This document shows positions 9,201 to 57,382 of a stretch of 60,706 nucleotides of DNA, in pieces. Made by a program: the position numbers and the translations under genes. The notes under the pieces are model-generated. The model was not told where the DNA came from. It searched no databases and saw only the letters and a program-made list of their open reading frames with translations. Position 1 is the stretch's first letter, and each line of letters begins with the position of its first letter. Source of the stretch: Chloroflexota bacterium (GTDB lineage Bacteria > Chloroflexota > Limnocylindria > Limnocylindrales > Limnocylindraceae); assembly GCA_026389535.1 (NCBI GenBank), contig JAPLHR010000046.1, positions 1-60,706 on the forward strand, in the 5' to 3' direction.

Positions 9201-10384
9201 AGCGTTGGCCAGCTGAGCGCCGCTGCATCAAGCAGCAGCTCTGGGTTTCCATTACGACGAAGTGCGCTTAGTGCCCTATCAATAGCGCGTAACGCTTCTC
9301 CCCATGTTGCCGTTGGGAGTCCGTGTGCAACGGCCTCAATCTCTGCGCGGTCTTCAGGGAAGGCAATCTGGTCCACCGCACCGGCGCTCACTAGTGCAAG
9401 ATCACGAGCCACACCACGCCAGAGGCGCAAGAGTGCCGTTGCAGCAGCGCGACGCTCTGCAGGTGTCGGTTTCGCGCTGCGCTTCGCTGGGCTCACCTTC
9501 TTCGGCTCGGCGTCGACATCTGGCGCATCATCGCTGCCATCTTTACTCTCGGTGCCATCAGCCGCGTCGCCGTCGTCAGCGCCAGCAACCAGGAGCGCGC
9601 GCGCATCGGCGACCAGCGCGCCAAGCTGGCCTAGCCGTGCATGCGGTGAGGTTGCGGTGAAGTCGAGAATTTGTCGACGAATCTGCGCGTGTGCGCGTGC
9701 CGCGTCGCCTGTTGCTTCGGCATCAATGAGTGGCCCAGGTCGACCAGACGACATGCGCAAAAGCCGCACCGCTGTTGGCGCGTCAACGCCGAGTCGTTCG
9801 GCGAGCAGCTCACTCGCCTGGTTCGCGTCTGGAAGGCCGATACGGATCACCGCGCAGCGACTGCGAATGGTTGGCATGAGCCGTGAATCTTCAGCGGCCG
9901 CCAAGATCACGTGGGTGCGAGAGGGCGGCTCCTCGAGGGTCTTGAGCAGCGCGTTTTGTGCCGCCTCGTTCATGCGGTCGGCGCGCTCAATCAGCGCGAT
10001 CCGGCGACCCCCCTCAACCGAGAAGAGGGCGAGGCCTGCGGCGAGGGCGCGGATTGGCTCGATACCGATCTCGTCCGAGGCACCAGACGGCGAAATGAGC
10101 ACGAGATCGGTATGGCTTCCTGAGGCGATCAGGCGGCAGGCGCGGCAGGCGCCACAGGGGCCGCCGTCGACCGGCGCGTCGCACATGAGCGTCGCGACGG
10201 CGTCTCGGGCGAGTGTGCCTGCACCTGCGCCACGCGGCCCGACAATCAGCAGGGCGTGCGGTGGTGCGTCGGCGAGGAGTGCGGCGAGGTGCGCGGCGGC
10301 GGCGTCATGACCGCGGGTTGCGAAGCGTGCTGGGCGACGCGCAGGGTGAGCGGCGTCAGACGGCGTTGAGACCGCCCGCGCCAT
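9197..10384 (-). CDS. holB: DNA polymerase III subunit delta'
   Basis: AAA+ clamp-loader motifs: LIVGPRGAGAGTLA, zinc module CGACRACR, NALLKTLEEPP, SRC motif (RSRC). Confidence 0.85.
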   Translation of the reverse strand: MARAVSTPSDAAHPARRPARFATRGHDAAAAHLAALLADAPPHALLIVGPRGAGAGTLARDAVATLMCDAPVDGGPCGACRACRLIASGSHTDLVLISPSGASDEIGIEPIRALAAGLALFSVEGGRRIALIERADRMNEAAQNALLKTLEEPPSRTHVILAAAEDSRLMPTIRSRCAVIRIGLPDANQASELLAERLGVDAPTAVRLLRMSSGRPGPLIDAEATGDAARAHAQIRRQILDFTATSPHARLGQLGALVADARALLVAGADDGDAADGTESKDGSDDAPDVDAEPKKVSPAKRSAKPTPAERRAAATALLRLWRGVARDLALVSAGAVDQIAFPEDRAEIEAVAHGLPTATWGEALRAIDRALSALRRNGNPELLLDAAALSWPTL

Positions 10385-32198: not shown

Positions 32199-34745
32199 TT
32201 ACTTGCGCAGGCTTTGTGGCAACACAGGAAGCTGTCGCGCTGGGTCGTAGCGTCGCCCAGCAACGGTGTTCTCCCAGTTAGCTTCGCCGCGAATGAAGGT
32301 GGCCTCCGACGTGCGCTCGAGCTTCGAGAGGGCGATGAGGTCAATCATCGGCTCGCTGCGATCGGTGTGTGCGAGCTCAAAATCAAATCCGCTGCGAAGC
32401 GCATCGTATGGGCAGGCGTCAACACAGATGCCGCAGAGGATGCAGCGCGACTCGTCAACTTCAAACTTGGCAAGGATTCGTGGCTTCGGCATCAGCGCGC
32501 CAGTTGGGCAGGTCTCTGCACAGCGGCCACACGAGACGCACGGTGACTCATTCAAGCTCATGTCGAGCGGTGTAGTAACGAGCGTGTCAAAGCCGGTGCG
32601 CATGAAGTCGTAGCAGGCGGCACCCACGACTTCGGCGCAGACGCTGGCGCAGCGTCCGCAGTCGATGCAGCGTGATGGCTCACGCAGAATGAATGCGTGT
32701 GAGTCGTCGCGGATGTAGTCGTGGTTTGCGCCTGTCCAGCGGTTTTCGGTAATGGAGCGGAACCCGGCACCACCGTGATGCTCTTTCTCGAGCGTCTTAA
32801 GTGTTGTGCCGTATTCGATACCGAGGCGTCGTAGATCACAGAAGCCGATCGCCTCGCAGGTGCACTGCAGGCAGCGCGTGCTCTCCGCCATCACCTCGGG
32901 CTTGGTATACGGAAGCTCGTACTCGATGTAGTCATTCTTGCGATCTTCAGCTGGGAGTGCCTTCATGCGCAGGCGTGGCTCCTTCACCTCGGCGGTGAAC
33001 GGCACGATGCTCAAGAACTCTGGCTGTGGCTCTGCGAGTGTCTGCCGGTTGCGAATCTCCGAGAGGTCGAGCCCTTGCAGGTATGCATCAACCGCGTAGG
33101 CGCAGCGTCGACCATCGGCGATCGAGGCGACGACGGTTGTTGCGCCGTTGCGCAGGTCGCCGCAACCGAACACGCCGTCGCGGCCAGACTGGAAGGTGAC
33201 AGCGTCCGCCTTCATTCGTCCGTTCTTGGTGGTGGCGACTCCGTCGGCGCCAACGCTCGCCCAGGTCATGTCGGGGCCCTGGCCGATCGCCTTCAGGATG
33301 CGATCGCACTCGATAATGAACTCCGTGCCAGGAGCTGGCTCCGGTCGTCGGCGGCCTGATGCGTCGGGGGCGCCGAGCTGCATGCGGATGAATTCGAGGC
33401 CGATCACCTTGTTGTTCGCATCGGTGACGACGCGGGTTGGACCTGCCTGGAAGATGGCGCGTGCCCCCTCCTCGATCATCTCGTGGACCTCGTCGGCGGC
33501 CGGCATGTCCTTCATGTCGCGGCGGTAGACGAGGGTGACCTCCTTGGCCCCCTGACGAATGCTTGTACGCGAGCAGTCCATCGAGGTGTAGCCGCCGCCG
33601 ACCACAACCACACGCGTCCCCTCGTGCCCTGGGTAGGTGAGGCCGAGAGCAGCGGTGTGTAGGTAGTCGAGGCCGTCGATGACGCCGTCGGCGTCTTCGC
33701 CTGGAATGCCGAGGTCGTTCGTGTCGTAGCAACCGATGGCAACGACGACGCCGTCGTAGCCCTGCGCCTTCAGGTCGGCGACGGTGAAGTCGCGACCGAG
33801 CATCTTGCCGCACTCAAAGCGTCCACCGAGTCGCGTGATCGACTGGTACTCACCATCGAGCACCTCGATCTTCGGCAGGCGGTACTGCGGAATGCCGTAG
33901 CGCAACATGCCGCCTGGCTCAGGGTCTTTCTCGAAGACGGTGACGTCGTGTCCGGCAACGAGCAGGTAGTACGCGGCCGATGCGCCGGCTGGACCCGAAC
34001 CAATGACGGCGACGCGCTTACCAGTCTTCGGCTGCAGCTCAAACGGCACTGGCGGGTCGAGATCTTCGTCCCACATTGCCTTCAACACCTGATCGCCGGC
34101 GTAGCGGTGGCTGTCACGAATTGCGATCGCCTCGTCAACCTCGTCGCGACGGCAGTGATCCTCGCATGGCGCCGGGCAGACGCGCCCGAGGATGCTTGGG
34201 AATGGAATGGTGCGCTTGAAGATGCGTGCCGACTCGCGGAACTGCGACTCTGCGTTCGCCTTCAAGAATCCAGGGATGTCAATGTGGCTCGGGCACTTGT
34301 TCTGGCAGGGTGGCAAGCAGTAGGCGTTGTGGTCGCTAAAGATCAGCTCAAGGTTGGTGCGGCGAATCTCGCGAATGCGATCGGTCTGCGTTGCTACGAC
34401 CTGTGCCGGCTCCGCCTTCGCTGAACAGCTAATAGATGGCTGATCGCACCCTTCGACATCCACCACGCACATGCGGCAGGCGCCGAATCCTGGAAGCTTC
34501 GGGTCATAGCAGAGCGTTGGCACTTCGATGCCGTTCGCGCGGCACACTTCAAGAATGGTCTGCCCCTCAAATGCTTCGAGTTTCTGCCCGTCAATCTCAA
34601 CGTAGAAGGTCGGCGTGCGCTGTGGGCGCTGTGGGCTGCGCGTGGTGAGCAGCTTGTCGACGGCGACCTCTGCCGATGGTGCTGCGGTGATCGCGCGCGA
34701 GACTGGTGTCACTGCGCTTGCCGGTCGATCAATCAGGTCGGCCAT
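32199..34745 (-). CDS. Chimeric Fe-S flavoprotein: NuoG-type [2Fe-2S] domain + GltD-like NAD(P)H/FAD oxidoreductase + [4Fe-4S] domains + NuoI C-terminal-half-like tail
   Basis: aa 46-135: FYVEIDGQ...LCYDPKLPGFGACRMC...SC. aa ~135-560: GltD pattern (CPSHIDIPGF, GRVCPAPCEDHC, VAVIGSGPAGASAA, VVVVGGGYTSMD, GVFGCGD). aa 620-755: CLQCTCEAIGFC, RCIDCGRCASVC, CVSCGRCAETCPTGAL. aa 756-848: KFEVDESRCILCGICVDACPYDAL..DFELA. Confidence 0.85.
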   Translation of the reverse strand: MADLIDRPASAVTPVSRAITAAPSAEVAVDKLLTTRSPQRPQRTPTFYVEIDGQKLEAFEGQTILEVCRANGIEVPTLCYDPKLPGFGACRMCVVDVEGCDQPSISCSAKAEPAQVVATQTDRIREIRRTNLELIFSDHNAYCLPPCQNKCPSHIDIPGFLKANAESQFRESARIFKRTIPFPSILGRVCPAPCEDHCRRDEVDEAIAIRDSHRYAGDQVLKAMWDEDLDPPVPFELQPKTGKRVAVIGSGPAGASAAYYLLVAGHDVTVFEKDPEPGGMLRYGIPQYRLPKIEVLDGEYQSITRLGGRFECGKMLGRDFTVADLKAQGYDGVVVAIGCYDTNDLGIPGEDADGVIDGLDYLHTAALGLTYPGHEGTRVVVVGGGYTSMDCSRTSIRQGAKEVTLVYRRDMKDMPAADEVHEMIEEGARAIFQAGPTRVVTDANNKVIGLEFIRMQLGAPDASGRRRPEPAPGTEFIIECDRILKAIGQGPDMTWASVGADGVATTKNGRMKADAVTFQSGRDGVFGCGDLRNGATTVVASIADGRRCAYAVDAYLQGLDLSEIRNRQTLAEPQPEFLSIVPFTAEVKEPRLRMKALPAEDRKNDYIEYELPYTKPEVMAESTRCLQCTCEAIGFCDLRRLGIEYGTTLKTLEKEHHGGAGFRSITENRWTGANHDYIRDDSHAFILREPSRCIDCGRCASVCAEVVGAACYDFMRTGFDTLVTTPLDMSLNESPCVSCGRCAETCPTGALMPKPRILAKFEVDESRCILCGICVDACPYDALRSGFDFELAHTDRSEPMIDLIALSKLERTSEATFIRGEANWENTVAGRRYDPARQLPVLPQSLRK

Positions 34746-36007: not shown

Positions 36008-36825
36008 GCGGCGTACCTGCCGGCGAGGGCGGCGGCCCAGCTGGCGGCATTCTTGGCGCTCAGGTCGCGCTGCGGCTCACCATCAATGACCACCAGCGGC
36101 GACGGGGCGCCGAGCAGGTGGTTTGGGAGCGACTCGAGGCGCAGGTTGCTCCATGGGATCGCTCGGCCGAACTCGGTGCCGAACTCGTAGCTGAGGGTGC
36201 CCATCACCGAACCCGCCCCCGAGACGAGGCAGTTGGCACAGCGGCAGACGGCGATCGAGCGGGTCACCCCTGGCTCAAAGGCGAGGTGCTTATAGAAGGT
36301 GGCGGTGCCGTAGACCATGGCGTACCAGGCACCGGTCGCGCCGCTGACGCGCTTCAGCGCGTCGACGGGGAGGTAGCCGTATGCCCCCTGAATCGCTTCA
36401 AGGATCGCGAGCATGTGGTGCGGGTCGTAGTCGTGCGCTTCGAGGATCTCGTCGACCTTCGCGATGTTGATGGTTGCCCCTGTTGCCGCTGCAGCGTCGG
36501 AGACGGCGCGACCGGAGCGGCGCATCGCCGACTCTTCGCGACGCTCGGCGTACTGCTCGGCGGGGCCCCAATGCACCGCGAAGCGCCCCTTCGTGTCGGT
36601 GCCGCCCATATCAATGCACTCGATCGGACAGGCCTGCGCGCACTGGAAACAGGTCTCGCACTTCAACGTTCCGTGTTCATCGGTGACGAGTTCAAGTCGG
36701 CCGCGATTGCGCGGAGCGATGTCGGGCTTCACCTCTGGATACAGCACGGTGCGCTTCGGCTGGAAGAAGCGCGTCAGCGTGAGGCGCATTCCCGAAACGA
36801 GGCCGGCGCCAGGAATTCGTGGCAT
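36004..36825 (-). CDS. Fusion protein: NuoI N-terminal half (one 4Fe-4S motif) + NuoE-like thioredoxin-fold domain
   Basis: Track ORF 36004..37101 trimmed to ATG 36823-36825, just after the nuoH stop. aa 1-75: LTLTRFFQPKRTVLYPE...CETCFQCAQACP. aa ~118-273: NuoE-like (MLAILEAIQGAYGYLP, GTATFYKHL, AVCRCANCLVSG). There is no second CxxCxxCxxxCP motif. Confidence 0.85.
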   Translation of the reverse strand: MPRIPGAGLVSGMRLTLTRFFQPKRTVLYPEVKPDIAPRNRGRLELVTDEHGTLKCETCFQCAQACPIECIDMGGTDTKGRFAVHWGPAEQYAERREESAMRRSGRAVSDAAAATGATINIAKVDEILEAHDYDPHHMLAILEAIQGAYGYLPVDALKRVSGATGAWYAMVYGTATFYKHLAFEPGVTRSIAVCRCANCLVSGAGSVMGTLSYEFGTEFGRAIPWSNLRLESLPNHLLGAPSPLVVIDGEPQRDLSAKNAASWAAALAGRYAA

Positions 36826-41057: not shown

Positions 41058-42236
41058 CTAGACGAGGGGGCGATTCGGAGCCGCCGTTCCGGGGAGTGGC
41101 GATGCGGGGTCGGCGAGCGCATTTGCCCCTGGAGAACTCCCCGCCACAAACACCTCCACGGCAAATCCGCCCATGCGGCGCGGATCCATCAGTTGGGCGA
41201 GTGCGGAGCGCAGGGCGATCGCCCCTTCGAGGGTTGCGGCTGGTCCAGTGCGCGTTCGGGCAACCTCGCCGTCGACCCCCGCCGTTGCGAGGAACTTGGC
41301 CTGGTTCGTGCTCGTCAGGTGGCGGAGCCCACCGGCCACCGCCGCCGCCCGCAGCAGGGTGAGGTCCACATGGGCGGTCAGGTCGCGGCTCCCTGGCTCA
41401 CTGAGGAGGTCCGCGGTGGCTCGGTGCCCCTGGTAGGCGAGGGCGGTGCCGGCCATGCGGCTGGTGGCGTCGCGCAGGATGGCCCCTTCGCGGCCGTAAT
41501 CGAGCACGATAACGACCCCTTCGGTGAGTTCGCCGCTCAGCCCGTGGGCCCAGTCGGCCGTTGCTGGCGAGAGCTCGGCGAGCTGCCCTTCGGCGAGTGG
41601 CGGCCAGCTCGCCATGAGTGGGGCGAGCCGTTCGGCGACCCCTGGATCGGGCGCCCCCTCAGCCCAGGTGAGGACATTTGTTACAGGGTCAATCGACACG
41701 CGGCGCTCGGCGAAACCGCCTGGAGCGGCGCGGCCGACCACTATGTGGAAGGGGAGGGCGTCGGCAAACTCATTGGCAACCACGATCCCCGCGGCTGGGG
41801 GGCTCCCCGCCGCAACGAGGGGTGGCCCCCCGCCAGGGAGCGCCGCCAGTGCGGCCGTCAAATCGGCGAGGCGGTATGGGTTCGCCTCGCTCACCGAGAC
41901 CTCCAGCGCGTCGAGAAGGGGGTGCCCCTCTCGGGCGAGGTGGTCGAGTGCCGCCAGCAGGAGGGTCCCCTCGCCAGCGCCGTACTCACGCCAGCGGAAG
42001 GTGGCTGGGCGGCCGAGGCGCTCCCAGGTTGCGGCGGCAAGTTGCGCGATGGCGGCACCGAGGATGGGGTGCAACTCTGGCGCCGTCATGAAGTCACCGC
42101 TGCGACCAGCCCGACGCTGGGCGGTTGCGTAGTAGCCGAGCCCAGGCTCAAGAAGGGCGCGCCCCATAAACCGCGCGAAGCTGATCGAGCCCTCGCGTTG
42201 GACCTCTTCGCGAATGAGACGCTCTACCTCTTCCAT
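41058..42236 (-). CDS. DUF185/NDUFAF7(MidA)-family SAM-dependent methyltransferase
   Basis: ISFARFMGRALLEPGLGYY, GDFMTAPELHPILG, WREYGAGEGTL. Start trimmed to ATG 42234-42236. Ends 72 nt upstream of nuoA on the same strand. Confidence 0.8.
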   Translation of the reverse strand: MEEVERLIREEVQREGSISFARFMGRALLEPGLGYYATAQRRAGRSGDFMTAPELHPILGAAIAQLAAATWERLGRPATFRWREYGAGEGTLLLAALDHLAREGHPLLDALEVSVSEANPYRLADLTAALAALPGGGPPLVAAGSPPAAGIVVANEFADALPFHIVVGRAAPGGFAERRVSIDPVTNVLTWAEGAPDPGVAERLAPLMASWPPLAEGQLAELSPATADWAHGLSGELTEGVVIVLDYGREGAILRDATSRMAGTALAYQGHRATADLLSEPGSRDLTAHVDLTLLRAAAVAGGLRHLTSTNQAKFLATAGVDGEVARTRTGPAATLEGAIALRSALAQLMDPRRMGGFAVEVFVAGSSPGANALADPASPLPGTAAPNRPLV

Positions 42237-42270
42237 GCAGTAGATCCTACGCGGCGCTACCGTCGGGCAC

Positions 42271-42861
42271 ATGCGTGAACTCGTTCTACACCTAGGGATC
42301 GGGGCCAACCTCGACGACCCTGTCGCCACGCTCGCTGAAGCGGTCGTCGCACTCGCGCACATTCCTGGCTGGAGCCTTGAGCAGGTCTCGCCGCTCTACC
42401 GCACCACTCCGGTCGGCCTCGTTGATCAACCAGAGTTCTTCAACGCCGCGCTCCGAATGCGCGCGACGCTTCCTGAAGAGCCGGCGGCGGCGGCAGTTGA
42501 GGTGCTTATGCGCGTCAAGGAGCTAGAGCGACTCTTCGGCCGCGTACCAACGGTGCGGTTCGGCCCGCGCCGTCTCGACATTGACATCATCGCGATGGAG
42601 AACATCGCAGTAGTGCATCCGCGACCGCACGGCACGGAGTCCGACGGTGCTGATGCTGATCGGCCGCTGGTCGTTCCGCATCCAGCCGCTGCCGAACGCC
42701 TCTTCGTCTTGGCACCACTCGCCGACATCTCTCCAACGCTAAAGGCGCCGGGGTGGCAAGGAACTGCACGCGAGCTGCGAGATGTGCAGCGACGCCTTGA
42801 AGGCGGGGCTGCTGCGCTCTGCGTCGGCGCGTGGGATCCGGCGGCGCTGCGCTGGGTGTAG
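42271..42861 (+). CDS. folK: 2-amino-4-hydroxy-6-hydroxymethyldihydropteridine diphosphokinase (HPPK)
   Basis: LGANLDDP, SPLYRTTPVG, FGPRRLDIDII, PHPAAAERLFVLAPL. Confidence 0.85.
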   Translation: MRELVLHLGIGANLDDPVATLAEAVVALAHIPGWSLEQVSPLYRTTPVGLVDQPEFFNAALRMRATLPEEPAAAAVEVLMRVKELERLFGRVPTVRFGPRRLDIDIIAMENIAVVHPRPHGTESDGADADRPLVVPHPAAAERLFVLAPLADISPTLKAPGWQGTARELRDVQRRLEGGAAALCVGAWDPAALRWV

Positions 42862-44732: not shown

Positions 44733-45113
44733 ATGAACATTCGCCAGTTCGGTCCCGGTCATCGACGTGCCGACCGCGCTGCAGGATCCAACGGTGTTCT
44801 CAGTAGCGCCATCTTCTCAAACGACATCGCACAGATCACCGAGTTCACAGTGACACCTGGCGGCACCTACGGCCCACTACGCAGCGCTGGTGATGTTGTG
44901 CTCGTGGTGATTGAGGGTGGCGGATGGGTCACCGTACTTGAAACGCTCGTACAGCTTGCCGCTGGTGAGTCGCTGCATCTTGAGCGGCTAACGCCCTACA
45001 GCATCGCTGCACGAGAGTTGCCGCTACGCGCGATCCTCGTCGAGCTTTCTGCGAGCAGCGTGACTGAGTCGGCTCGCACCATAGGCACCAGCGGCGGCGG
45101 CGCAGAGGAGTAG
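44733..45113 (+). CDS. Cupin-domain protein
   Basis: Small beta-barrel pattern (VVLVVIEGGGWVTV ... AGESLHL). ATG 44733 after GGGAGA. The 3' end overlaps the convergent GT-C gene by 90 nt. Confidence 0.5.
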   Translation: MNIRQFGPGHRRADRAAGSNGVLSSAIFSNDIAQITEFTVTPGGTYGPLRSAGDVVLVVIEGGGWVTVLETLVQLAAGESLHLERLTPYSIAARELPLRAILVELSASSVTESARTIGTSGGGAEE

Positions 45114-48100
45114 CACGCCAACGACGAGCGTCGCGCTACTGACAAGCGCGGCCTCGGCGGAACTTTCAAGGGTAACGCCGAATTGGAACGGCCAGGCCCA
45201 TGTTGGCAGTACGCCCTGGTACCAGTTATGAACGCCGGTTGGGAGTGGCAGCGCTGACCAGTTCGGATACCAGAGAAGTGCAACTGCAGCGATGCTGCTG
45301 ATGGTGATCGTAAAGATGCGACGCAAATCATTCGCCCCGAGAATTGACCATGCGGCCACCGTTGCAGGAACAAGCGCGATCGCACCAACGAGTGGTCCCG
45401 GTGTACCGAACCCACCCGAGAGGCAGACCTGGCTTTCTGGGTAGACGCTTGTCACTCCTGCGAGCGCGCAGAGCGCGCCGGTAGCCATCCAAAGCACTGG
45501 CGCAGCGAGCACCGCGCATGCGCCACCGATGCGCACGATCTGCGCAGCACGCTGTGATCCGGCGCGAAGATCAGCTAAGAGAAGTGCGAGGCCGATCAGG
45601 GCGATCTGTGAAGTTGGGTAGTAGTGATATTGGAATGCGACGCGATCGATGCGCGCCCACGGTAGCCAGAGCGCAAGGCCGAGAACGAGTACCGATGCGA
45701 GGCCCCAGCTTCGTCGGCGCCACGCCTCTGCTAGAAGCCAGAGCGCACCGCCGACGCTGAGGGCGCGAGAGAGCACGTTGCCGCCGTCGTACACCGCGGC
45801 GGTCCATGAGCTGCCGCCCGCGGTGAAGCTCGACTGGAAGAGCCAGACAGGCTTCAAGTCGAGCGGCCACGCCCACCATGGTGAGCTCGCGGCATGCGCG
45901 GCGCGCAGCGTGTCGTGATAGCGATACATCGACGCCGTGAGATCGGTCAGCGTCTGTCCGCTGTTGCCGATCGGCCAACCGGTAATCAACTGATTGCCGA
46001 GCGCCGCCCACGGCAAGTAGCTCGCGATGTAGACGCCGAGCGGGAGTGCGGCAAGCGTAAAGAGGACGAGTGTCGCTTCACCTGGGAGCGAGAGGAGTCC
46101 GAGAAGTGAGCGTGGGGTTGCTTCGCGCCGCGAGATGCCACCGGCGCGATGGATGGCCACGCCTGTCGCCGCAAGGAGTAGTACCAGCACGGCGGCAAAT
46201 GGCAGATTTGGGGTGCGGGTGGAGCCGTCGGCGACCGCGAGCGCTGGCGGGAGAAGCACGGCGCCGAGTAGGGCGAGCCCGCCCGCGACCAGTAGGCGCC
46301 CTGGCGCTGTTCGCGCGAGCCAGATGATGCCGAGACCGAAGATGCCGTAGAGGGCGACCCATTTGCTTGCGAGCGCTCCGCCGAGCAGAAGTCCGGCCAC
46401 GACGAGGAGGAGCCCCCCAGAGAGGGCGCCTCGCGCGCGACCCTGCAGCCATGCCACGAAGGCGACCGCGCCGCCAAGCAGGAGGGCCATGAGGTAGACG
46501 TCATTCATGCCGATGCGGCTCTGCACGAACCCGGCCCCGTCGAGCAGGGCGAGTACGCCGACGAGGGCGGCGACGTCGCGGCGCTCCGTCAGGAGCCGCG
46601 CCAAGAGAACTAGGAGGGCTGCGGCGAGTGCGCCGGCAATCACCCCGGGCCAGCGCCAGCCAGCGGCGAGGTCGCCCACGCTCACCTGTGTCATGGCACC
46701 AGATGGCGCCGCAATAAGTAGCTCGCCGTTGCCGCCATCGGCGCGCTCGTCTGAGGCATCAAGGGCTGCGCCGCTCACGCCAAGCGTGAGTGCATCAGCG
46801 CCCACGGCAACGTCGGCAAATCGGGCGTTGCCATTCGGCTCAACCGTCCACAGCGATGCGCCGGCGCCATCGGGCCCAGGTGCCACCACGTGCACCATGC
46901 GGCTTGCATCATTGGGCACGATCGCCGTGGCGCCTGGGATCGTGATCTGCGAGATGAGCGTCGTGCTCTCGCTCTTTGCGCTGTACACCCGTACGCCATC
47001 GCGACCCGCTACGTAGAGTCGCAGCGAGTCAAACCAGTCAACGGCTGCAACGGCAACTGCGCCACCCTCAATGGGTGAGGATCGCATGTTCGACAGGTCA
47101 CGTGCCGCGTAGCTCGTCAGCCCGCTAGCGCTCGTCACAAAGATTCGCTCCTCATCATCTACCGTGAGCGCGAGTACCGACGTCCCGCGCACAAGTGGTG
47201 CGCTTGCCACGACAACTCCATCGCGCATGATCAGCACCTGATCGCGTTGCACAAGGGCAACACCGCCATCAGTAAGTGGCGCAATGCCCAGGATGGCACC
47301 GCCAGTTGATGCCCACGTGCGCAGGCCGCTTGCGCCGCCCTGATCGGCGGTGGCGCGGTCGACCGAAAAGATTGTGCCGGTTTCGGTAGCGCCCCAGAGG
47401 GAGCCGTCATGGGCGGCGAGCAGTTGCGAAACGCTGCGTAGTGGAAGTGCGCCAAGGACTGCGCGCGTTGATGCATCAATCACGCTGATCTCTTCTGGCC
47501 CTGCGATCCAAATTCTGCCGGGGCTTAGTGCATCCTCTGGCCGAACGGCAATTGTGCCGATCCTTGTTGGGTATGTTGTTTGCGCATCGACACGAGGTGC
47601 GCCAAACGTTTCGAGACCGAGTGCAATGAGGTACTTGGCGAGATGCGGGTGTGTGTACTCATAGATCGCATGCGGCTCGCCGTACTTCCAGTCTTGCATG
47701 AACTCTGTCGCGGTTCGCACGTGATAGACCTCATCAAATTGGAAGTGTGTCGGCTCGCCAACGCGCCAGCCTCTCAGAGACAGGGTGCTCACTGTCACCA
47801 GGATCAAGAGCCAGAGGTCAATCCGTGTCAGGATTCGGCGGGGCTCCGGCTTTGCGATCACCGCCCGTCGTGGTACAGCGTCAACCTGTTTCCGTTGCGT
47901 GGCTGCTAGCCGCGCACCCGTTGTGCGTCTTTCGGTGCTCCACGCTAACCAGATGGCTGCGAACAGCGTTGCGGTGATTGCGATCGCGGTAGCCGTCACC
48001 GCAATCGGTGTGTGGAGTGCATCGGTGAAAACGCCAAGGTTTGGTAAGCCTGGGTTCTGGAAGTACGAGATGGTGAGCACGCCCCAGCTGTTCATAAAGA

Positions 48101-49208
48101 AGGCGACGGAGGTTGCGACAGCAATCCAGCGCCAGGCGGGCCGTGCTGCGGCGAGTGCAATCGTGAGCGGAATCGCCGGGAAGAGGTAGCGCTCGTGCAC
48201 GCGCGTTGGCAGAACGAAGAAGGCGATAGCGAGGATGGCGACAGCGGTAACGGTACGGATCGCCGTATCGCGTCGCACGTAGCGCATCGCAACGAGTACG
48301 GCGGCGGCGATCGCCGCACTGCCGATTGCGACTCCCGGAATGCCGATCAGGGGGAGTGGGTCGATGTCGGACGCCCACCCGCTCGCATCAACGACCGCTC
48401 GCCCACCGACCGTGATGAGCGCCCAAGGGTTCCAGGCATTTACCGAGAGGTGCGGGTAGGTGCCCGCCGCCTCTGCGATCTTGGCCAGCACGTCAGGAAG
48501 CGTGAGCCCGAACGGCAGGGCGGCGAGGGCAATGGTGGCGGCGCCAGCGAGGCCCGCTACGACGAAGGCCCATGGGTCACGCGCCGAGCGCGCTCGCACA
48601 AAGGCGAGGACGCCAACGATGGGGATCAGGATGCCGAACTGCGGCTTGAGCACCGCGGCGAGCGCGGCGAGGATCGCGCCGCGAACGGTCTTGCCGCGGA
48701 TCAGCGCGGAGAGTGAATAGAGGAGGGCGGCGGTTCCAATGGAGTCAACCTGTCCCCACACGGCTGAATCGAGCCAGATCATTGGGCCAACGGCCATGGC
48801 GATAGCGGCGGCAAGCTGGCCGCGTCGTGGTGCACCGAGGTCGGCGGCGAGCCGCACTGTTGCGAGTACCAGCAGGCCGTCGGCGAGGATCGCAGGGAGC
48901 TTTACGAGCGCCCCCGGGTCGGTGCTGCCAGTGATGAGTGCGCTAACCGAGCCGAGCGCCCAGAGGACCCACATGTAGCCGGGGAGGTAGTCGACAAAGA
49001 TTCCGCGTGCATAGAAACCCCACGGTCCACGGGTCCCCAGCTCAGACGCCCACGCTCGGAATGCGTTGAGATCAGAAGCAAAGCCTGCGTCTGGAGGGAG
49101 TGCCACGTATGCGATGATCACCCGCAAGAGAATCCCGAGCGCAGCGATTAGCGCAATTGTGCGGAGGCTGACCTGCTCGGTTGGTCGACGGGCCGTCTGA
49201 GAAATCAT
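45024..49208 (-). CDS. Giant (1394-aa) polytopic membrane protein: two GT-C-type glycosyltransferase modules, the second PMT/GT39-like with a large soluble insertion
   Basis: Continuous ORF. N-module: SDLNAFRAWASEL, VDYLPGYMWVLW. Second module: FQFDEVYHVRTATEF, THPHLAKYLIALG, MNDVYLMALLLGG, SPWWAWPLDLKPVW. Start trimmed to ATG 49206-49208. Confidence 0.8.
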   Translation of the reverse strand: MISQTARRPTEQVSLRTIALIAALGILLRVIIAYVALPPDAGFASDLNAFRAWASELGTRGPWGFYARGIFVDYLPGYMWVLWALGSVSALITGSTDPGALVKLPAILADGLLVLATVRLAADLGAPRRGQLAAAIAMAVGPMIWLDSAVWGQVDSIGTAALLYSLSALIRGKTVRGAILAALAAVLKPQFGILIPIVGVLAFVRARSARDPWAFVVAGLAGAATIALAALPFGLTLPDVLAKIAEAAGTYPHLSVNAWNPWALITVGGRAVVDASGWASDIDPLPLIGIPGVAIGSAAIAAAVLVAMRYVRRDTAIRTVTAVAILAIAFFVLPTRVHERYLFPAIPLTIALAAARPAWRWIAVATSVAFFMNSWGVLTISYFQNPGLPNLGVFTDALHTPIAVTATAIAITATLFAAIWLAWSTERRTTGARLAATQRKQVDAVPRRAVIAKPEPRRILTRIDLWLLILVTVSTLSLRGWRVGEPTHFQFDEVYHVRTATEFMQDWKYGEPHAIYEYTHPHLAKYLIALGLETFGAPRVDAQTTYPTRIGTIAVRPEDALSPGRIWIAGPEEISVIDASTRAVLGALPLRSVSQLLAAHDGSLWGATETGTIFSVDRATADQGGASGLRTWASTGGAILGIAPLTDGGVALVQRDQVLIMRDGVVVASAPLVRGTSVLALTVDDEERIFVTSASGLTSYAARDLSNMRSSPIEGGAVAVAAVDWFDSLRLYVAGRDGVRVYSAKSESTTLISQITIPGATAIVPNDASRMVHVVAPGPDGAGASLWTVEPNGNARFADVAVGADALTLGVSGAALDASDERADGGNGELLIAAPSGAMTQVSVGDLAAGWRWPGVIAGALAAALLVLLARLLTERRDVAALVGVLALLDGAGFVQSRIGMNDVYLMALLLGGAVAFVAWLQGRARGALSGGLLLVVAGLLLGGALASKWVALYGIFGLGIIWLARTAPGRLLVAGGLALLGAVLLPPALAVADGSTRTPNLPFAAVLVLLLAATGVAIHRAGGISRREATPRSLLGLLSLPGEATLVLFTLAALPLGVYIASYLPWAALGNQLITGWPIGNSGQTLTDLTASMYRYHDTLRAAHAASSPWWAWPLDLKPVWLFQSSFTAGGSSWTAAVYDGGNVLSRALSVGGALWLLAEAWRRRSWGLASVLVLGLALWLPWARIDRVAFQYHYYPTSQIALIGLALLLADLRAGSQRAAQIVRIGGACAVLAAPVLWMATGALCALAGVTSVYPESQVCLSGGFGTPGPLVGAIALVPATVAAWSILGANDLRRIFTITISSIAAVALLWYPNWSALPLPTGVHNWYQGVLPTWAWPFQFGVTLESSAEAALVSSATLVVGVLLLCAAAAGAYGASRLSHAARRKLDEDRA

Positions 49209-49233
49209 CTGCCGAGTGTAGCCGTGAAGGGGG

Positions 49234-49998
49234 TTGTGGAAGGTGCCACTGCAAGAGCTCTCGCTCTTCTTCCCCTGCCACAACGAGGCTGAGAACCTTG
49301 AGGCGCTCGTCGCCGATGCGCTCGCAGCGCTCCCCACCCTCGCCACGACCTATGAGGTCATTCTCGTTGACGACGGTTCGCGTGATGACACTGCCGGCGT
49401 GGCCGAGCGCCTAGTGCAGCGGCACGGCGGAGCCGTTCGCCTGGTGCGCCACGAGGTAAACCGCGGGTACGGCGGCGCGCTTCGTTCGGGTTTTGCGGCG
49501 GCACGGTATGAGCACCTTGCCTACACCGACGGCGACCGCCAGTTCCGTGTCGCTGACCTTGCGCGCCTTGTCGAGTGTGCCGAGGCGACACGCTCGCCGG
49601 TTGTCATTGGGTATCGCGTGCAGCGTGCTGATCCGCCACTGCGTCTCATCTACGCCACCCTGTATCGCATTGCCAATCGCATCTGGTTCGGACTTCGTGT
49701 CCGCGACGTTGACTGCGCTGCAAAACTATTCCATCGCGATGCACTGCGTGGAATCATCGTGCACTCTGACGGCGCCTTCTTCTCTGCAGAGCTACTGATT
49801 CGTTTGCGACTCGCTGGCGTGAACATCCTTGAGGTCGGCGTGCCGCACTATCCGCGTACCGCTGGCTCACCTACGGGGGCGCGCCTCTCGGTTATTACGC
49901 GAGCTGTGCGCGACTTCTGGTCGCTACGCATTGGGCTCTGGGTGAGCCGCGCTCGAACGCTCTCGCGAGGTCGCGCGCTGTTGAACGATGAGCGCTAG
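49234..49998 (+). CDS. GT2 polyprenyl-phosphate sugar synthase-like glycosyltransferase
   Basis: FPCHNEAENL, VILVDDGSRDDT, NRGYGGALRSG, YTDGDRQF. The start is TTG 49234 or GTG 49243. Confidence 0.8.
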   Translation: MWKVPLQELSLFFPCHNEAENLEALVADALAALPTLATTYEVILVDDGSRDDTAGVAERLVQRHGGAVRLVRHEVNRGYGGALRSGFAAARYEHLAYTDGDRQFRVADLARLVECAEATRSPVVIGYRVQRADPPLRLIYATLYRIANRIWFGLRVRDVDCAAKLFHRDALRGIIVHSDGAFFSAELLIRLRLAGVNILEVGVPHYPRTAGSPTGARLSVITRAVRDFWSLRIGLWVSRARTLSRGRALLNDER

Positions 49999-50501: not shown

Positions 50502-52988
50502 TTACGGCGTAGGAATCGGGGTCTCGATAACAGGATCAGGAGTTGGGCCAACGCTCGCCCCTGGCTCTTGTTCAATCGGTTTCCCAAGGACGGCGCTACG
50601 AACGCGTCCCGCCTCAGCCCAGACAAACGTTGGTGCCCCGCCATCAGATGCGGGGAGGATGTATCCGCCGAGAATCTCACCGATTTGGTCGGCTTGATCA
50701 CTAATGACGTACTGCGCGAGCATGGCGCCGGACGACGCCTTGCTGTACGCGATCACTCGGCGTGCGCTGCTATCCCAGACGTAGATGATCCCTGTTCTGC
50801 TCGCCCCCGCGGACATCACGACCGTTGGGGTAAGCAGGGGCCGCAGTAGCTCGTCGCCAATCTCTGCTGGGGTCCACTCGTCTGGCGCACCGCCTGAGTA
50901 GCGGCGCAGCGCACCGCCGCTCGTCATATAGACATCACCGTCGATCGCGATGCCCGTCATGGTGCCCAGCGACATCGGGTTGATCAGATACGCCGTTGGG
51001 GCGGCGGGGTAGCCCGTGCCGTCGGGGGCTGGCTGGTACCGCAAGATCTGACGCGCTGAGGGGTCAACGACATAGAGGCGGTAGAGCCCAGTCCCTGGGT
51101 CGGCTGCGAATCCGACAATCGCCTTGACGTCGCTCCCCCACAGCTCGCCGTCGCGGACGCGAAGCTTGACCAGCGTCCCCTTGCCGGCTCCGTCGGAGGG
51201 GCGCCAGCGCCAGAGGTTGGAGGAGGCATCAAACACCACGAGGTCGGGCCCAGAAGCGGTGATGAGTAGTGCGCGCCCCGTGCGCGTGCCGTAGAGGTCA
51301 AACCCTGGCTGGTACACAACGGTTGCACGGCCGCGCTCGGCATCAATTCGGTATACCGCGCCCGTCACCTTGTCGATGACATACGGCAGACCGTCTGGCC
51401 CCTGGACGATCGCCTGGATCTCAACTGTTGCGCCCGCCGCCTCAAAGTCGAAGAGCTCGATCGGGGCCGTGTTGTTCACCAGGAAAATCTTATTGAGCGT
51501 CTCTGTCGCCTCTGTTCGTAGCGTCGTGATTCGGGCGAGCGGGCCGCCTCCAGTCTCTGCAAGATTCAGGTTGGCAACGGCGGTGAGCAGGAGGCTCTTC
51601 GCGCGCGCTGGGTCGTTCACAAGAAGGTTGGTCTGGGGATCAAGCGCTTCACCGATACCGATCTCCGCACTTCGTAGGGCCTCGCGGGCCTTCGCCGCAG
51701 CGTCCAGCTCCGGAGTTGATCCGTTTAGCACGAGTGCAGTTGCGCCGCCGACCCCGGCGACCAACACCGCGGCGAGAAGGATTGCGGCTGAGCGGCGTCG
51801 ACGTGTGCGCTGAACTTCGTGCTCTGCCTGCTCGTCGCTCCCCGTCGCTGCGCGGAGCGTTGGCTCAGCTGGGGTGACTGTTAGCCATGGTGCTCGGCGC
51901 TCAATCTCGTTTGCGATGCGCGCAGCGGCGCGCTGCCAGAACGACGTTGACGTTGCGGCGCGCTCTCGCCACGATCGCTCAACTCGTGGCTCTGCTGCGC
52001 TGCGATGCTCTGCGCGCAGTCGCGCCTCCGCGCGCGCAGTCTCTTGCGCCGCTCGCACTGCATCGCTTGTGCGCTGGTCGCGCGCCGGTGGCGGTTGAGC
52101 CTTCCCTCGCGCACGTGCCTCCGTCCCGCTTCGTGTGCTTGGGCGTCGCGCATCAAACACCGCCTGTGCTGCGGTGTCAATTGGTTCATACGGCCGTGTC
52201 TGCGCGTCTGGCCGATTCGGATCGGCCTTTGGCGCCACTGGTTTTGCAGCGGCGATGCGCGCCTCGCGCTCAAGGTTTCCCTCCTCCCAGCGTGTGCGCG
52301 CGTTGATCTTTGCGACTGCTACTGGATCGGTCGGAACGTTGATCAGCGTGTCGGAGTCTGGCGCCGCCCACTGAACAGCCTTTCGCACCGGTAGCAGCAC
52401 CTCAAGAAGCACCGCTGGGTAGGCGAGTGGTGCAAGTACGCCGCTCACAGGTGTGTGTGCTTTGACTGCGCGTTTCGCATCCTCCGACGTGATCGCCAGC
52501 GCGACGCGATCTTTTGGGGACATCGAGAGCCGTGTCGCTGAGATCCCGCCGCGCTCGAGCGTGCGTGACGATGCACCAGGCGCCTCGTCGGGCAACATGA
52601 TTGTTGACATGCGACCCTCTGTAGTTCGGCGTGCGGCAATCGCCACGCCGCTGGTGCGTGCTACAAGGACCTCTTCGCGCGATAGCGCAACGAGCCCAAC
52701 TGCAACGCTCTCGCCGAGTCGCTTCTGTGCAGCGGTGAGCGCACGACGCGCTCGCTCCGCGGGACTGGCCGACGCGTCTCTGTCAAAGAGGTCAAGTGTT
52801 TCGTTGGCGGCTTTTTGGAGCTGCGCCGTTGTCGCACCGACGAGCGAGATGAGTACGGCGCGTGTGCCGAGTACGCGCTCCTCAGACGGCCCCTTCGGCG
52901 TACGTGCGAGCAGGAGCCAGCCTGGACCAAACGCTGGCTCGGCAGCGGTTAGCACTGCGGGGTGAATGGTCTGTTCGGTCTGGTCCAT
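50502..52988 (-). CDS. Hypothetical 828-aa single-pass membrane protein: cytoplasmic N-domain, Arg-rich linker, TM, extracytoplasmic beta-propeller-like repeats
   Basis: TM segment SAAILLAAVLVAGVGGATALVL. C-terminal repeats of the type YVIDKVTGAVYRID / LYVVDPSARQILRY / IYVWDSSARRVIAY. Confidence 0.65.
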   Translation of the reverse strand: MDQTEQTIHPAVLTAAEPAFGPGWLLLARTPKGPSEERVLGTRAVLISLVGATTAQLQKAANETLDLFDRDASASPAERARRALTAAQKRLGESVAVGLVALSREEVLVARTSGVAIAARRTTEGRMSTIMLPDEAPGASSRTLERGGISATRLSMSPKDRVALAITSEDAKRAVKAHTPVSGVLAPLAYPAVLLEVLLPVRKAVQWAAPDSDTLINVPTDPVAVAKINARTRWEEGNLEREARIAAAKPVAPKADPNRPDAQTRPYEPIDTAAQAVFDARRPSTRSGTEARARGKAQPPPARDQRTSDAVRAAQETARAEARLRAEHRSAAEPRVERSWRERAATSTSFWQRAAARIANEIERRAPWLTVTPAEPTLRAATGSDEQAEHEVQRTRRRRSAAILLAAVLVAGVGGATALVLNGSTPELDAAAKAREALRSAEIGIGEALDPQTNLLVNDPARAKSLLLTAVANLNLAETGGGPLARITTLRTEATETLNKIFLVNNTAPIELFDFEAAGATVEIQAIVQGPDGLPYVIDKVTGAVYRIDAERGRATVVYQPGFDLYGTRTGRALLITASGPDLVVFDASSNLWRWRPSDGAGKGTLVKLRVRDGELWGSDVKAIVGFAADPGTGLYRLYVVDPSARQILRYQPAPDGTGYPAAPTAYLINPMSLGTMTGIAIDGDVYMTSGGALRRYSGGAPDEWTPAEIGDELLRPLLTPTVVMSAGASRTGIIYVWDSSARRVIAYSKASSGAMLAQYVISDQADQIGEILGGYILPASDGGAPTFVWAEAGRVRSAVLGKPIEQEPGASVGPTPDPVIETPIPTP

Positions 52989-55954: not shown

Positions 55955-57382
55955 CTACGGGCGGGCGGCAACCCCTTGGCCGAGGCGAAGAAGGGCTTCG
56001 CGTAGCAAGGCAACCTCTCGGCGCAGCTCGCCGTCGTAGCCCATCTCCCGTTCGATCTTGGTGCAGGCGTGAATGATGGTCGAGTGGTCGCGACCGCCCA
56101 AGGCGGCCCCAATGCGAACGAGCGAGGCGTCGGTCTCCTCGCGGGAGAGGTACGCCGCGATCTGCCGTGGGGTCACAATCTCCCGGTCACGCTTCGGTCC
56201 ACGGAGCTGCTCAACCGTCAGGCTGAAGTGCTCGGCAACGGTGGCGACCACCTGCTCTGGCTCAAGGATGCGCTTCGGGTTTGGATAGACAGCCTCGTTC
56301 AGTACGCGCGCTGCGAGCTCCATCGTGACCGGCATGCCGCTGAGTCGGCCAACAGCGACAAGTCGCGTCAGTGCGCCTTCAAGCTCGCGCACGTTGCTCT
56401 GCACGCGGCGCGCAACCTGTTCAACAACATCGTTTGCAACGATGACGCCACTCTCTTCCGCCTTGGCGCGCAAGATTGCAATGCGCGTCTCAAGATCTGG
56501 CGACGAGATGTCGGCGATGAGACCCCACTCAAATCGCGAGCGAAGGCGCTCCTCGAGCAACGAGATCTCTTTCGGTGTGCGATCCGACGTCAACACAATC
56601 TGCTTCCCGGCGGAGTGCAGCGCGTTGAAGGTGTGGAAGAACTCTTCCTGCGTGCGCTCCTTATCGGCGAGGAATTGAATGTCATCAATGAGCAGCACAT
56701 CGATCTTGCGGAAGCGCGAACGGAATGCCTCTGCGCCACCCTGCTGAATGCTGGTGATGAACTCATTCGTGAACGCTTCGCCTGTGATGTAGAGCACCTG
56801 GCGCTTCGGTGAGCGCTCAGCAACAGCGTTGCCAATGGCGTGCAACAGGTGTGTCTTGCCGAGGCCGGTGCCGCCGTACAAGAAGAGCGGATTGTATGCA
56901 CCACCAGGTCGTTCGGATACAGAGAGCGATGCTGCGTGTGCGAGACGGTTTGCTGCGCCAACAACATACGCCGCGAATGTGTAGCGAGGATTCAAGTTCG
57001 TTGCACGCGTTGGCACATCACGATCGATGATGCGCACACTCTCTTGTGGTGCGGTGACACGCGGTGCCGTGTCGGCAGAGGCGACCCCCTTCCCCTTCGC
57101 GGCGAGTGCGCCGTGCGCGTCGAGCTCAGCGTCGCTCACCACCTCTACTGAAAGCGTCACGCTGTAGCCAACAACCTTCGCCAACGTTTGTGCGATCAGG
57201 GAGCGATAGCGCTCATCAACCCAATCTTTTGCGAATCCGGACTGAACGCCGACAGCAAAGGTGGCAGTTGACTCGTCGACACGAAGGAGTGCTGTGCGAC
57301 GGAACCAGGTCTCGAAGGTGGCCGTCGAGAGGCTGATCTCCAGCTCTCCGAGGACCGCGCGCCAGACCTGTCGTTGATCCAT
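55955..57382 (-). CDS. dnaA: Chromosomal replication initiator DnaA
   Basis: Walker A GGTGLGKTHL, Walker B LLIDDIQF, domain IV HSTIIHA. Start trimmed to ATG 57380-57382 (MDQRQVWRAVLGEL). Confidence 0.93.
   Translation of the reverse strand: MDQRQVWRAVLGELEISLSTATFETWFRRTALLRVDESTATFAVGVQSGFAKDWVDERYRSLIAQTLAKVVGYSVTLSVEVVSDAELDAHGALAAKGKGVASADTAPRVTAPQESVRIIDRDVPTRATNLNPRYTFAAYVVGAANRLAHAASLSVSERPGGAYNPLFLYGGTGLGKTHLLHAIGNAVAERSPKRQVLYITGEAFTNEFITSIQQGGAEAFRSRFRKIDVLLIDDIQFLADKERTQEEFFHTFNALHSAGKQIVLTSDRTPKEISLLEERLRSRFEWGLIADISSPDLETRIAILRAKAEESGVIVANDVVEQVARRVQSNVRELEGALTRLVAVGRLSGMPVTMELAARVLNEAVYPNPKRILEPEQVVATVAEHFSLTVEQLRGPKRDREIVTPRQIAAYLSREETDASLVRIGAALGGRDHSTIIHACTKIEREMGYDGELRREVALLREALLRLGQGVAARP

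Follow-up and report, generated by a model that had tools for sequence, protein, structure and literature searches.

A complex I operon of Candidatus Limnocylindrus with a predicted Nfn-type input module lying within nuoI

The DNA analysed here, hereafter the window, is a 60.7-kb stretch of a freshwater Candidatus Limnocylindrus (Chloroflexota) genome. Its minus strand carries an operon for respiratory complex I (nuo), whose genes include one for an 848-residue protein, X3, one for a NuoF-like protein (F) and one for a NuoE-like protein (E). An earlier note, made from the sequence alone, had described X3 as a GltD-type flavoprotein set inside a NuoG-type iron-sulfur subunit. Profile hidden Markov models, matches to solved structures and the confident part of a structure model all agree with that description. 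The earlier note had not recorded that the gene for E opens with the N-terminal half of NuoI, or that both E and F look degenerate.

X3 and the nuo operon of the window

X3 is read from an ATG at 34745 to a stop codon at 32199-32201. The earlier note had the bounds of the open reading frame (ORF; 32199-34745, 848 residues) right, the strand being minus, and the extent it gave for the insert (~33066-34343) holds for that strand. The protein runs from a NuoG/HydA-type [2Fe-2S] domain through a complete GltD/NfnB-type module for flavin adenine dinucleotide (FAD) and reduced nicotinamide adenine dinucleotide phosphate (NADPH) to three [4Fe-4S] sites and, finally, the C-terminal half of NuoI. Clusters are named after PMC11829005.

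34745..32199, minus strand: X3 fused subunit, 848 residues (ORF; Pfam and NCBIfam domains)
34383..34601, minus strand: X3 residues 49-121, [2Fe-2S] domain at the N1b / A1 position, ligands C79, C90, C93 and C107 (PF13510 Fer2_4, E 6e-17)
33066..34331, minus strand: X3 residues 139-560, GltD/NfnB-like insert (PF14691 and PF07992; alignment to C. saccharolyticus NfnA and StnC)
32505..32873, minus strand: X3 residues 625-747, three [4Fe-4S] sites (alignment to 9bov_A and 8oh5_C)
32202..32486, minus strand: X3 residues 754-848, C-terminal half of NuoI and tail (TIGR01971 positions 71-117 of 121, E 2.6e-15)

All the motifs that the earlier note had read are present in the translation: the four [2Fe-2S] cysteines, the GltD iron-sulfur signature CPSHIDIPGF...GRVCPAPCEDHC, the Rossmann motifs VAVIGSGPAGASAA and VVVVGGGYTSMD with GVFGCGD, and the post-insert iron-sulfur motifs CLQCTCEAIGFC, RCIDCGRCASVC and CVSCGRCAETCPTGAL. 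Within the insert we distinguish two [4Fe-4S] sites (H139/C143/C147/C198 and C151/C190/C194/H213), an FAD motif (G249-x-G251-x-x-G254), an NADPH-type motif (GGGYTSMD...VYRR, 383-409) and GVFGCGD. Beyond it, CLQCTCEAIGFC takes the A3 or N5-like position, and CIDCGRCASVC with CVSCGRCAETCP makes up a dicluster of the HydA type at A2/A4. The earlier note had passed over one more ferredoxin motif, the fourth, CILCGICVDACP (C768-C778); it is the second CxxCxxCxxxCP motif of NuoI and lies in the NuoI C-terminal half.

Three of the four Pfam families that the earlier note had named were found in full: PF13510, PF14691 Fer4_20 (residues 143-222, E 4e-18, 65.7 bits against a cut-off of 25.8) and PF07992 Pyr_redox_2 (244-545, E 3e-28, 99.6 bits against 26.1). 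The fourth, PF10588, matches in part only, at residues 128-144, which are the first 17 model positions and the start of an N5-type domain. Ferredoxin-type dicluster domains cover residues ~686-784, and, in agreement with the earlier note, no Pfam match to a molybdopterin-like domain occurs anywhere on X3. The top NCBIfam model is PRK12814, an architecture of [2Fe-2S] plus GltD that spans residues 49-705. By comparison the NuoG model TIGR01973 reaches 81 bits against a cut-off of 470 and covers residues 49-183 only, so X3 is not a full NuoG. On the evidence of Pfam, motifs and fold it does contain a GltD-type module, with its Fer4_20 two-cluster domain, FAD GxGxxG and NADPH GGGxTAMD...YRR.

The cofactor sites were followed through an alignment of 51 sequences (X3, 22 Limnocylindria and 28 Thermoleophilia homologues). 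All predicted iron-sulfur ligands are invariant, including the four [2Fe-2S] cysteines, the ligands of the insert and the 12 cysteines of residues 625-747. The earlier note had counted a missing GltD/Pyr_redox_2 domain or disrupted glycines as grounds for giving up its proposal; the domain is there, and the FAD GxGxxG motif is invariant throughout. Of the three glycines in the NADPH motif, G383 and G385 never vary, and G384 becomes Asp solely in a six-member Thermoleophilia sub-branch that also lacks YRR. Every Limnocylindria sequence reads GGGxT(S/A)MD...(V/L)YRR..MPA. The YRR nucleotide motif is common to NADPH-dependent T. sibiricus and C. saccharolyticus NfnA, T. maritima NfnB and A. brasilense GltD.

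An AlphaFold2 (AF2) model of X3 was built from the same alignment. Its [2Fe-2S] domain is mostly confident, and the predicted local distance difference test score (pLDDT) is ~80-95 over most of the FAD/NADPH part (~210-560); the Fer4_20 part (139-210) scores ~40-83, falling below 50 at 133-150 and 197-204. In Foldseek the modelled insert matched the NfnI-L chain 5jca_L with a template modelling score of 0.79, and 5jca_L, 5jfc_L and 6s6s_E with root-mean-square deviations of 2.5-2.8 A. These matches added nothing beyond the results of the sequence searches.

The gene order of the operon is A-B-C-D-H-[I(N)::E]-F-[G'::GltD::FeS::I(C)]-J-K-L-M-N, all on the minus strand, with gene junctions that are gaps of 2-3 nt or ATGA overlaps and with Shine-Dalgarno sequences at some of them. 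The genes and domains other than X3 are as follows.

40985-40629, minus strand: nuoA (PF00507)
40659-39931, minus strand: nuoB, start codon uncertain (PF01058; N2 ligand motifs CC...C...C-P kept)
39930-39379, minus strand: nuoC (PF00329)
39376-38165, minus strand: nuoD (PF00346; quinone-site motifs GPQHPSTHG, with its His, and ADY, with its Tyr; no NiFe cysteine motifs)
38168-36828, minus strand: nuoH (PF00146, E 4e-100)
36825-36004, minus strand: I(N)::E fusion, 273 residues (sequence, junctions, Shine-Dalgarno, NCBIfam NuoI and NuoE/HoxE)
36562..36825, minus strand: fusion residues 1-88, N-terminal half of NuoI with the first CxxCxxCxxxCP motif, CETCFQCAQACP (TIGR01971, NF004537, NuoI chains of the PDB)
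36043..36480, minus strand: fusion residues 116-261, NuoE/BfuC-like domain (PF01257, E 2e-17; HoxE/NuoE models)
36007-34748, minus strand: F, a NuoF/BfuB-core-like subunit for flavin mononucleotide (FMN), 419 residues (Pfam; TIGR01959)
32195-31635, minus strand: nuoJ (PF00499)
31638-31318, minus strand: nuoK (PF00420)
31314-29365, minus strand: nuoL (PF00361, PF00662)
29368-27857, minus strand: nuoM (PF00361, PF01059)
27860-26421, minus strand: nuoN (PF00361)

Thus, all seven membrane-arm subunits (A, H, J, K, L, M and N) are recognized by Pfam, and the quinone module is represented by NuoB with its N2 ligands, NuoC, and NuoD with the His and Tyr of the quinone site. The nuo operon contains no canonical nuoG. 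NuoH, at 446 residues, is ~100 residues longer than the 298-position span of its Pfam model, with an N-terminal extension and internal insertions.

A NuoI sequence shared by two proteins

The E protein most plausibly starts at an ATG at 36825, 2 nt past the nuoH stop, and its N-terminal sequence, GLVSGMRLTLTRFFQPKRTVLYPEVKPDIAPRNRGRLEL...CETCFQCAQACPIECIDMGGTDTKGRFAVHW, is that of NuoI. Profile coverage of the two proteins is complementary: on the 121-position model TIGR01971, residues 12-76 of E match positions 1-64 (E 6e-11) and residues 756-802 of X3 match positions 71-117, while on the 204-position model NF004537 E covers positions 24-99 and X3 the abutting 100-145. When the halves were joined in silico and compared with solved structures, they aligned as one stretch to residues 24-129 of E. 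coli NuoI (73.8 bits, E 1.4e-19), and were also collinear with residues 6-128 of T. thermophilus Nqo9. Scored singly the halves reach 38.5 and 35.8 bits, the sum of which is close to the joined score. The split point lies in the hairpin that connects the two ferredoxin motifs, such that the strand GRFAVHW closes the half on E and the strand ILAKFEVDESRC opens the half on X3.

The whole window contains four CxxCxxCxxxC motifs, one on E and three on X3; there is thus no separate nuoI in the window. Unlike the single polypeptide with two [4Fe-4S] clusters found in complex I, the NuoI sequence is complete here and divided between two proteins. Since its halves lie at the two ends of the series H-[I(N)::E]-F-[X3]-J, the three genes of the input module lie within nuoI.

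Two other readings of this arrangement were set aside. An assembly or frameshift artefact is ruled out because 80 independent loci, and a further phylum as well, show the same split. The possibility that motifs 2 and 3 of X3 alone make up NuoI is ruled out because the first motif and the N-terminal region of NuoI are on E, in keeping with the complementary profile coverage.

Kinship and conservation of the input module

The best solved relatives of X3 are 9bov_A of C. saccharolyticus NfnABC (E 7e-164, residues 49-779), 8oh5_C, which is S. ovata StnC (E 3e-140), and 9n5u_A, which is T. sibiricus NfnA (E 3e-136); all three stand far ahead of NfnB, GltD or any NuoG. F scores ~300 bits against HydB, NfnB (9n5u_B), StnB (8oh5_B) and 9bov_B, and 180-243 bits against the NuoF chains of complex I. 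The NuoE part of the fusion finds its best solved matches in HydC, 9bov_C and NfnC. As X3, F and E find their best counterparts in chains A, B and C of one and the same set of solved enzymes, all three appear to descend from a Bfu-type Nfn/Stn module. The earlier note had guessed at kinship with StnABC, and the agreement with three chains each of 8OH5, 9BOV and 9N5U makes the case stronger than it had put it.

The placing of GltD inside a NuoG-type protein is itself already known from StnC and NfnA (PMC11829005, PMC10482914), and the alignment over residues 49-779 gives X3 the whole core of an Nfn-type BfuA: the [2Fe-2S] domain, the GltD-like insert and clusters A2-A4, A6 and A7. The window and the Nfn-Bfu/StnABC enzymes also have the same set of three proteins, A combining [2Fe-2S], a GltD/NfnB-like insert and [4Fe-4S] clusters, B binding FMN and C being NuoE-like. 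The NADPH motif is conserved, as is R282 of X3, the equivalent of R239 in StnC. In the soluble enzymes electrons follow the path FAD-A7-A6-A3-A2-A1-[B1-FMN-C1], and the A4/A5 branch (C1/C2 in Stn), housed in a formate-dehydrogenase-like (Fdh-like) domain, is described as a dead end or a 'non-functional remnant' (PMC11829005, PMC10482914). X3 differs in lacking the Fdh-like C-terminal domain and its A5 cluster, and carries half of NuoI instead, which starts where NfnA has its A5 motif; 21 residues separate the last A4 cysteine from the first cysteine of the NuoI half. A further difference concerns the FAD-proximal cluster, where X3 has an invariant His213, StnC and NfnA have Lys170 and NfnB has Glu; K170 of StnC is reported to be strictly conserved (PMC10482914).

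The partner proteins also depart from the soluble enzymes. F, spanning residues 147-511 of StnB only, lacks the N-terminal thioredoxin-like and C-terminal two-[4Fe-4S] domains of BfuB, with their cluster and Zn sites, and scores 318 bits on TIGR01959 against a NuoF equivalog cut-off of 559. E bears the other NuoI half, and the second cysteine pair of its [2Fe-2S] (N1a/C1) site is missing. Consequently the B2-B5 sites and C1 cluster that characterize a bifurcating BfuBC core are not found in F and E of the window.

The conservation of these proteins was compared across 80 Limnocylindria loci (L001-L080), each taken as ±10 kb around an X3 match. X3 is 97-98% identical to its counterparts in Candidatus Limnocylindrus and Aquidulcis metagenome-assembled genomes (MAGs), and at least 563 species-level genomes of the reference set encode a close relative. 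The order A-B-C-D-H-E-F-X3-J-K-L-M-N is identical in 80/80 loci, wherever the contig allows, the F gene is kept in every one, and the motif CETCFQCAQACP on E is near-invariant. Median identities to the window, taken over the 59 loci at ~75% X3 identity, were as follows.

X3 GltD segment: 77.9%
X3 C-terminal part: 77.3%
NuoD: 75.5%
NuoB: 74%
E: 61% over 67% coverage
F: 52.5%

Within Limnocylindria constraint is thus greatest on the insert and least on F, the opposite of what would be expected if NuoF is among the best-conserved subunits in canonical complex I. Among the 76 loci in which the NuoE part was read, none has the full set of [2Fe-2S] ligands; ~28 keep the first cysteine pair only, and ~48 lack the thioredoxin-like half, a few of these rows being frame artefacts. 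In F, the FMN loop GLRGRGG(A/G)G..KW is kept in 74 of 76 readable loci and GEET..GKRGQPEQ.PP in 76 of 78.

A second lineage is formed by MAGs of Thermoleophilia/Actinobacteria, whose representative P0140 (42% identical) shares both the gene order and the division of NuoI. At the Thermoleophilia locus L081 the F subunit is a full 638-residue BfuB (8088-10004) with N-terminal thioredoxin-like domain and C-terminal dicluster, and the NuoE part is canonical with an intact [2Fe-2S] site; the core of a bifurcating BfuBC is therefore complete there. The sub-branch without the YRR nucleotide motif comprises P0140, P0271, P0273, P0275, P0276 and P0278. In a neighbour-joining (NJ) tree of 63 sequences and 672 columns, which included 45 long representatives of the soluble type, both lineages linked to complex I formed one clade against the soluble types in 100/100 bootstraps. 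The topology is compatible with one insertion event, after which E and F were reduced in Limnocylindria.

The 1049-residue protein P0239 combines a StnC-like N-terminal part and a ferredoxin motif similar to the NuoI half with a thiamine pyrophosphate (TPP) domain like that of 2-oxoacid:ferredoxin oxidoreductase beta subunits. Because of this fusion it was not counted as a third lineage with a NuoI half; it seems to be another wiring of the same 'exit' branch to a partner.

Proposed function, rival explanations and known variants

We hold, with moderate confidence, that X3 is a true subunit of a variant complex I whose input arm derives from an Nfn/Stn-type BfuABC, was inserted once in nuoI, and takes electrons from NADPH at the FAD and probably from NADH at F. 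The enzyme would most likely be a proton-pumping NAD(P)H:quinone oxidoreductase. The earlier note had put forward NADPH use, dual NADH/NADPH use or coupled transhydrogenation, all of which are conjectural. NADPH would probably be used alongside or in place of NADH, a specificity predicted from the nucleotide motif of X3, and the location of the input-module genes inside the nuo operon makes quinone the presumable acceptor, rather than the ferredoxin and NAD+ of Nfn-Bfu/StnABC.

In the history we propose, a soluble three-gene module, an NADPH:NAD+/ferredoxin transhydrogenase of the BfuABC type, would have entered the mid-gene hairpin loop of nuoI once. The insertion would have left the N-terminal half of NuoI as the N-terminus of the NuoE-like protein, and the BfuA-like protein would have shed its formate-dehydrogenase-like C-terminal domain so that it now ends in the C-terminal half of NuoI. 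As the halves must reassemble into the two-cluster fold that holds N6a and N6b, the input module would be tethered to the quinone module. The halves probably act as covalent tethers that stand in for the anchoring role of the missing C-terminal domain of NuoG.

The path of electrons is traced by homology to the solved soluble enzymes. A hydride from NADPH would pass to the FAD of the GltD-like insert, and the electrons would move on through the clusters A7 (His-ligated here) and A6 of the insert to A3 and A2. They would leave via A4, the dead end of the soluble enzymes, which here may lead on to N6a/N6b of the reassembled NuoI, and then reach quinone through N2 of NuoB while NuoH, A, J, K, L, M and N pump protons. 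The FMN site of F probably still oxidizes NADH, joining this chain via N3 and the [2Fe-2S] cluster to A2, though this entry may be secondary.

A number of points weigh against this reading. The N3 motif of F (C331/C336/C342...C382) reads C-ADEA-C-GKTIP-C (WCADEACGKTIPC) in place of the usual CGKCxPC, so that its middle cysteine is missing; the upstream C331 may substitute, and four cysteines remain in most relatives, but C331 is Ser in some. The NADH-site motif, NADE(G/S)EPG in canonical NuoF, is altered to NGY(G/E)(A/S)DP, and to NGDEGDPG in the F of Thermoleophilia. In two Limnocylindrus MAGs (L004 and L005) the FMN loop is degenerate (QLHCHRDGGASVASSWR) and GEST replaces GEET, even though their X3 is still 92-93% identical to that of the window; a degenerate loop beside an intact X3 suggests that one species or more can do without the FMN site. 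In view of these changes, dual input is not certain. On the side of X3, the replacement of the StnC lysine by His213 makes the potential of the FAD-proximal cluster unpredictable. The link from A4 to N6a is deduced from the 21-residue spacing between their motifs; the AF2 model yields no geometry from A4 to NuoI, because residues 628-848 have pLDDT <50 and that part was not used. The enzyme as a whole is a model drawn from sequence and homology.

Whether F is catalytically relevant separates an enzyme with dual input from one fed by NADPH only. In the latter, the FAD of the GltD-like insert would be the sole physiological entry, and the NuoE- and NuoF-like proteins would be vestigial scaffolds that tether or stabilize X3. 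The low identity of F and E, the incomplete [2Fe-2S] site in every E that was read, the frequent loss of the thioredoxin-like half, the altered N3 and NADH sites of F and the degenerate FMN loop of L004 and L005 all favour such an enzyme; yet the F gene is never lost, its FMN loop and GEET motif are kept at nearly all loci, and most members retain four cysteines for N3. We consider this unlikely on balance, but it deserves to be taken seriously. A complex that runs in reverse, with the proton-motive force pushing electrons from quinol to NADP+ to supply NADPH for biosynthesis, appears improbable. Complex I is reversible, and a site of the NADPH type would be a direct route to NADPH, but Limnocylindria are described as aerobic heterotrophs of freshwater and soil, and the window shows no sign of a lithotrophic lifestyle that would need reverse electron flow.

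That X3, F and E form a soluble transhydrogenase of the Stn/Nfn type, whose genes merely sit within the nuo operon and whose product stands outside complex I, we find scarcely credible. Their nearest solved relatives are indeed soluble transhydrogenases; however, each half of the essential NuoI is found in the window solely fused to E or X3, there is no Fdh-like domain, on which StnC depends to assemble and form tetramers, F lacks the ferredoxin-side domains, and synteny is invariant across two phyla. Equally hard to sustain is the notion that the GltD insert is an inactive remnant within an ordinary NADH:quinone oxidoreductase. A remnant has a precedent in this very family, in the Fdh-like domain of StnC (PMC10482914), and YRR has been lost in one Thermoleophilia sub-branch; against it, conservation in the operon peaks at the insert, and Limnocylindria keep all its cofactor ligands and nucleotide motifs intact or without variation. 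Bifurcation or confurcation, in which the module would couple NADPH, NAD(H) and either ferredoxin or quinone, for instance by reducing quinone with NADPH and a second donor, was part of what the earlier note had proposed. The descent of the module from bifurcating Bfu enzymes speaks for it, as do the Thermoleophilia relatives with both BfuB accessory domains and a complete NuoE [2Fe-2S] site, and a confurcating 'Nuo-Bfu' has been predicted by Schut et al. (PMC9304861). The B2-B5 sites, however, are needed for bifurcation and are missing from non-bifurcating homologues (PMC11829005), as they are from F of the window, and E has no C1 cluster, part of the B1-FMN-C1 bifurcation site. With F lacking the BfuB accessory domains and E the [2Fe-2S] ligands, coupling of this kind seems very improbable here, above all where linked to ferredoxin. 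Ferredoxin-linked bifurcation is possible in the Thermoleophilia form, and the complex I of L081/L082, with its full BfuB, is a candidate for a membrane-bound bifurcating or confurcating enzyme.

Bacterial complex I is usually regarded as being linked to NADH alone; in the known variants the input module is exchanged for one of the F420H2 or ferredoxin type. A built-in flavoprotein that oxidizes NADPH would, if confirmed, tie the anabolic nucleotide pool directly to proton pumping, with ~60-100 mV of extra driving force where the quinone is low-potential menaquinone, in organisms that are abundant in lakes and soils. It would also be a clean case of modular evolution, in which the entry of a soluble three-gene module at the loop-coding site of nuoI gave rise to a split iron-sulfur protein that may double as an anchor, and the dead-end cluster branch of StnABC/NfnABC, so far unexplained, would gain a possible functional counterpart. 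It is tempting to go further and propose, tentatively, a widespread and unrecognized class of complex I in Limnocylindria and Thermoleophilia, with an Nfn/Stn arm that was gained independently of NuoEFG by insertion into nuoI and with NuoI made from two subunits, which in Limnocylindria would be mainly or only an NADPH:menaquinone pump and in which the 'dead-end' branch of the soluble enzymes would correspond to the exit wire. At present the genes are labelled 'FAD-dependent oxidoreductase' or 'formate dehydrogenase major subunit', and with such labels a survey that counts complex I by the presence of NuoG and NuoI would record it as missing from these genomes. Many Chloroflexi have been described as having 13 of the 14 Nuo subunits and 'lacking NuoG' (Spero et al. 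2015).

A complex I with an Nfn-type module inside a split nuoI is not described in the open-access papers and bioRxiv preprints that we searched, and it is apparently a new arrangement of known parts. With the canonical 14-subunit complex I of T. thermophilus and E. coli it shares subunits A, B, C, D, H and J-N, the N2 and quinone-site motifs, an FMN subunit, a NuoE-like subunit, an N1b-type [2Fe-2S] domain and the NuoI sequence. It departs from that enzyme in placing E, F and G' between H and J inside nuoI, in having NuoI on two polypeptides, in the loss of the NuoG molybdopterin-like domain and of the N1a ligands, in the added FAD/NAD(P)H module, and in having F and E that are nearer to HydB/HydC than to NuoF/NuoE. 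Closest in concept is 'Nuo-Bfu', predicted to be confurcating in Geobacter, Deferribacteres, Planctomycetes and Nitrospirae (Schut et al. 2022, PMC9304861), where a module of the BfuABC type likewise takes over from NuoEFG as the entry to a proton pump resembling complex I. As described there, it has neither GltD insert nor split NuoI; Actinobacteria go unmentioned, and Chloroflexi are listed solely under other Bfu types, Limnocylindria not having been specifically searched for.

The individual features of the insert, namely the two sites of Fer4_20, the Rossmann folds for FAD and NADPH, and YRR, are shared with NfnB of NfnSL, with GltD and with the N-terminal part of dihydropyrimidine dehydrogenase; in X3, by contrast, the module is embedded within a protein of the NuoG/HydA type. 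That a GltD-type flavoprotein with an NAD(P) site can stand at the position of NuoI in a membrane enzyme resembling complex I has a precedent in the Mbx-like operons of Thermotoga and proteobacteria, where a gltD-related flavoprotein is found in NuoI's place (Degli Esposti 2015, PMC4758237). Compared by description only, those systems are related to ferredoxin and hydrogenase and are thought to reduce NAD(P)+, they have no NuoE/F-like partners and no NuoG-type domain, and their NuoI is substituted rather than split.

Several neighbouring genes were also recorded. Immediately upstream of nuoA, a 434-residue protein (41058-42362, minus strand) matches PF02636 Methyltransf_28 (E 8e-35). We take this family to be that of the complex I assembly factor NDUFAF7/MidA, which presumably methylates an Arg of the NuoD homologue, and its place beside this unusual nuo operon may be meaningful. 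At higher coordinates, also on the minus strand, a 1440-residue ORF (45024-49346) has PMT-type glycosyltransferase domains confined to its C-terminal third, and an 828-residue ORF (50502-52988) has zero Pfam matches. A dnaA gene (DnaA_N, Bac_DnaA and Bac_DnaA_C) at 55955-57592, also on the minus strand, places the window near the chromosomal replication origin.

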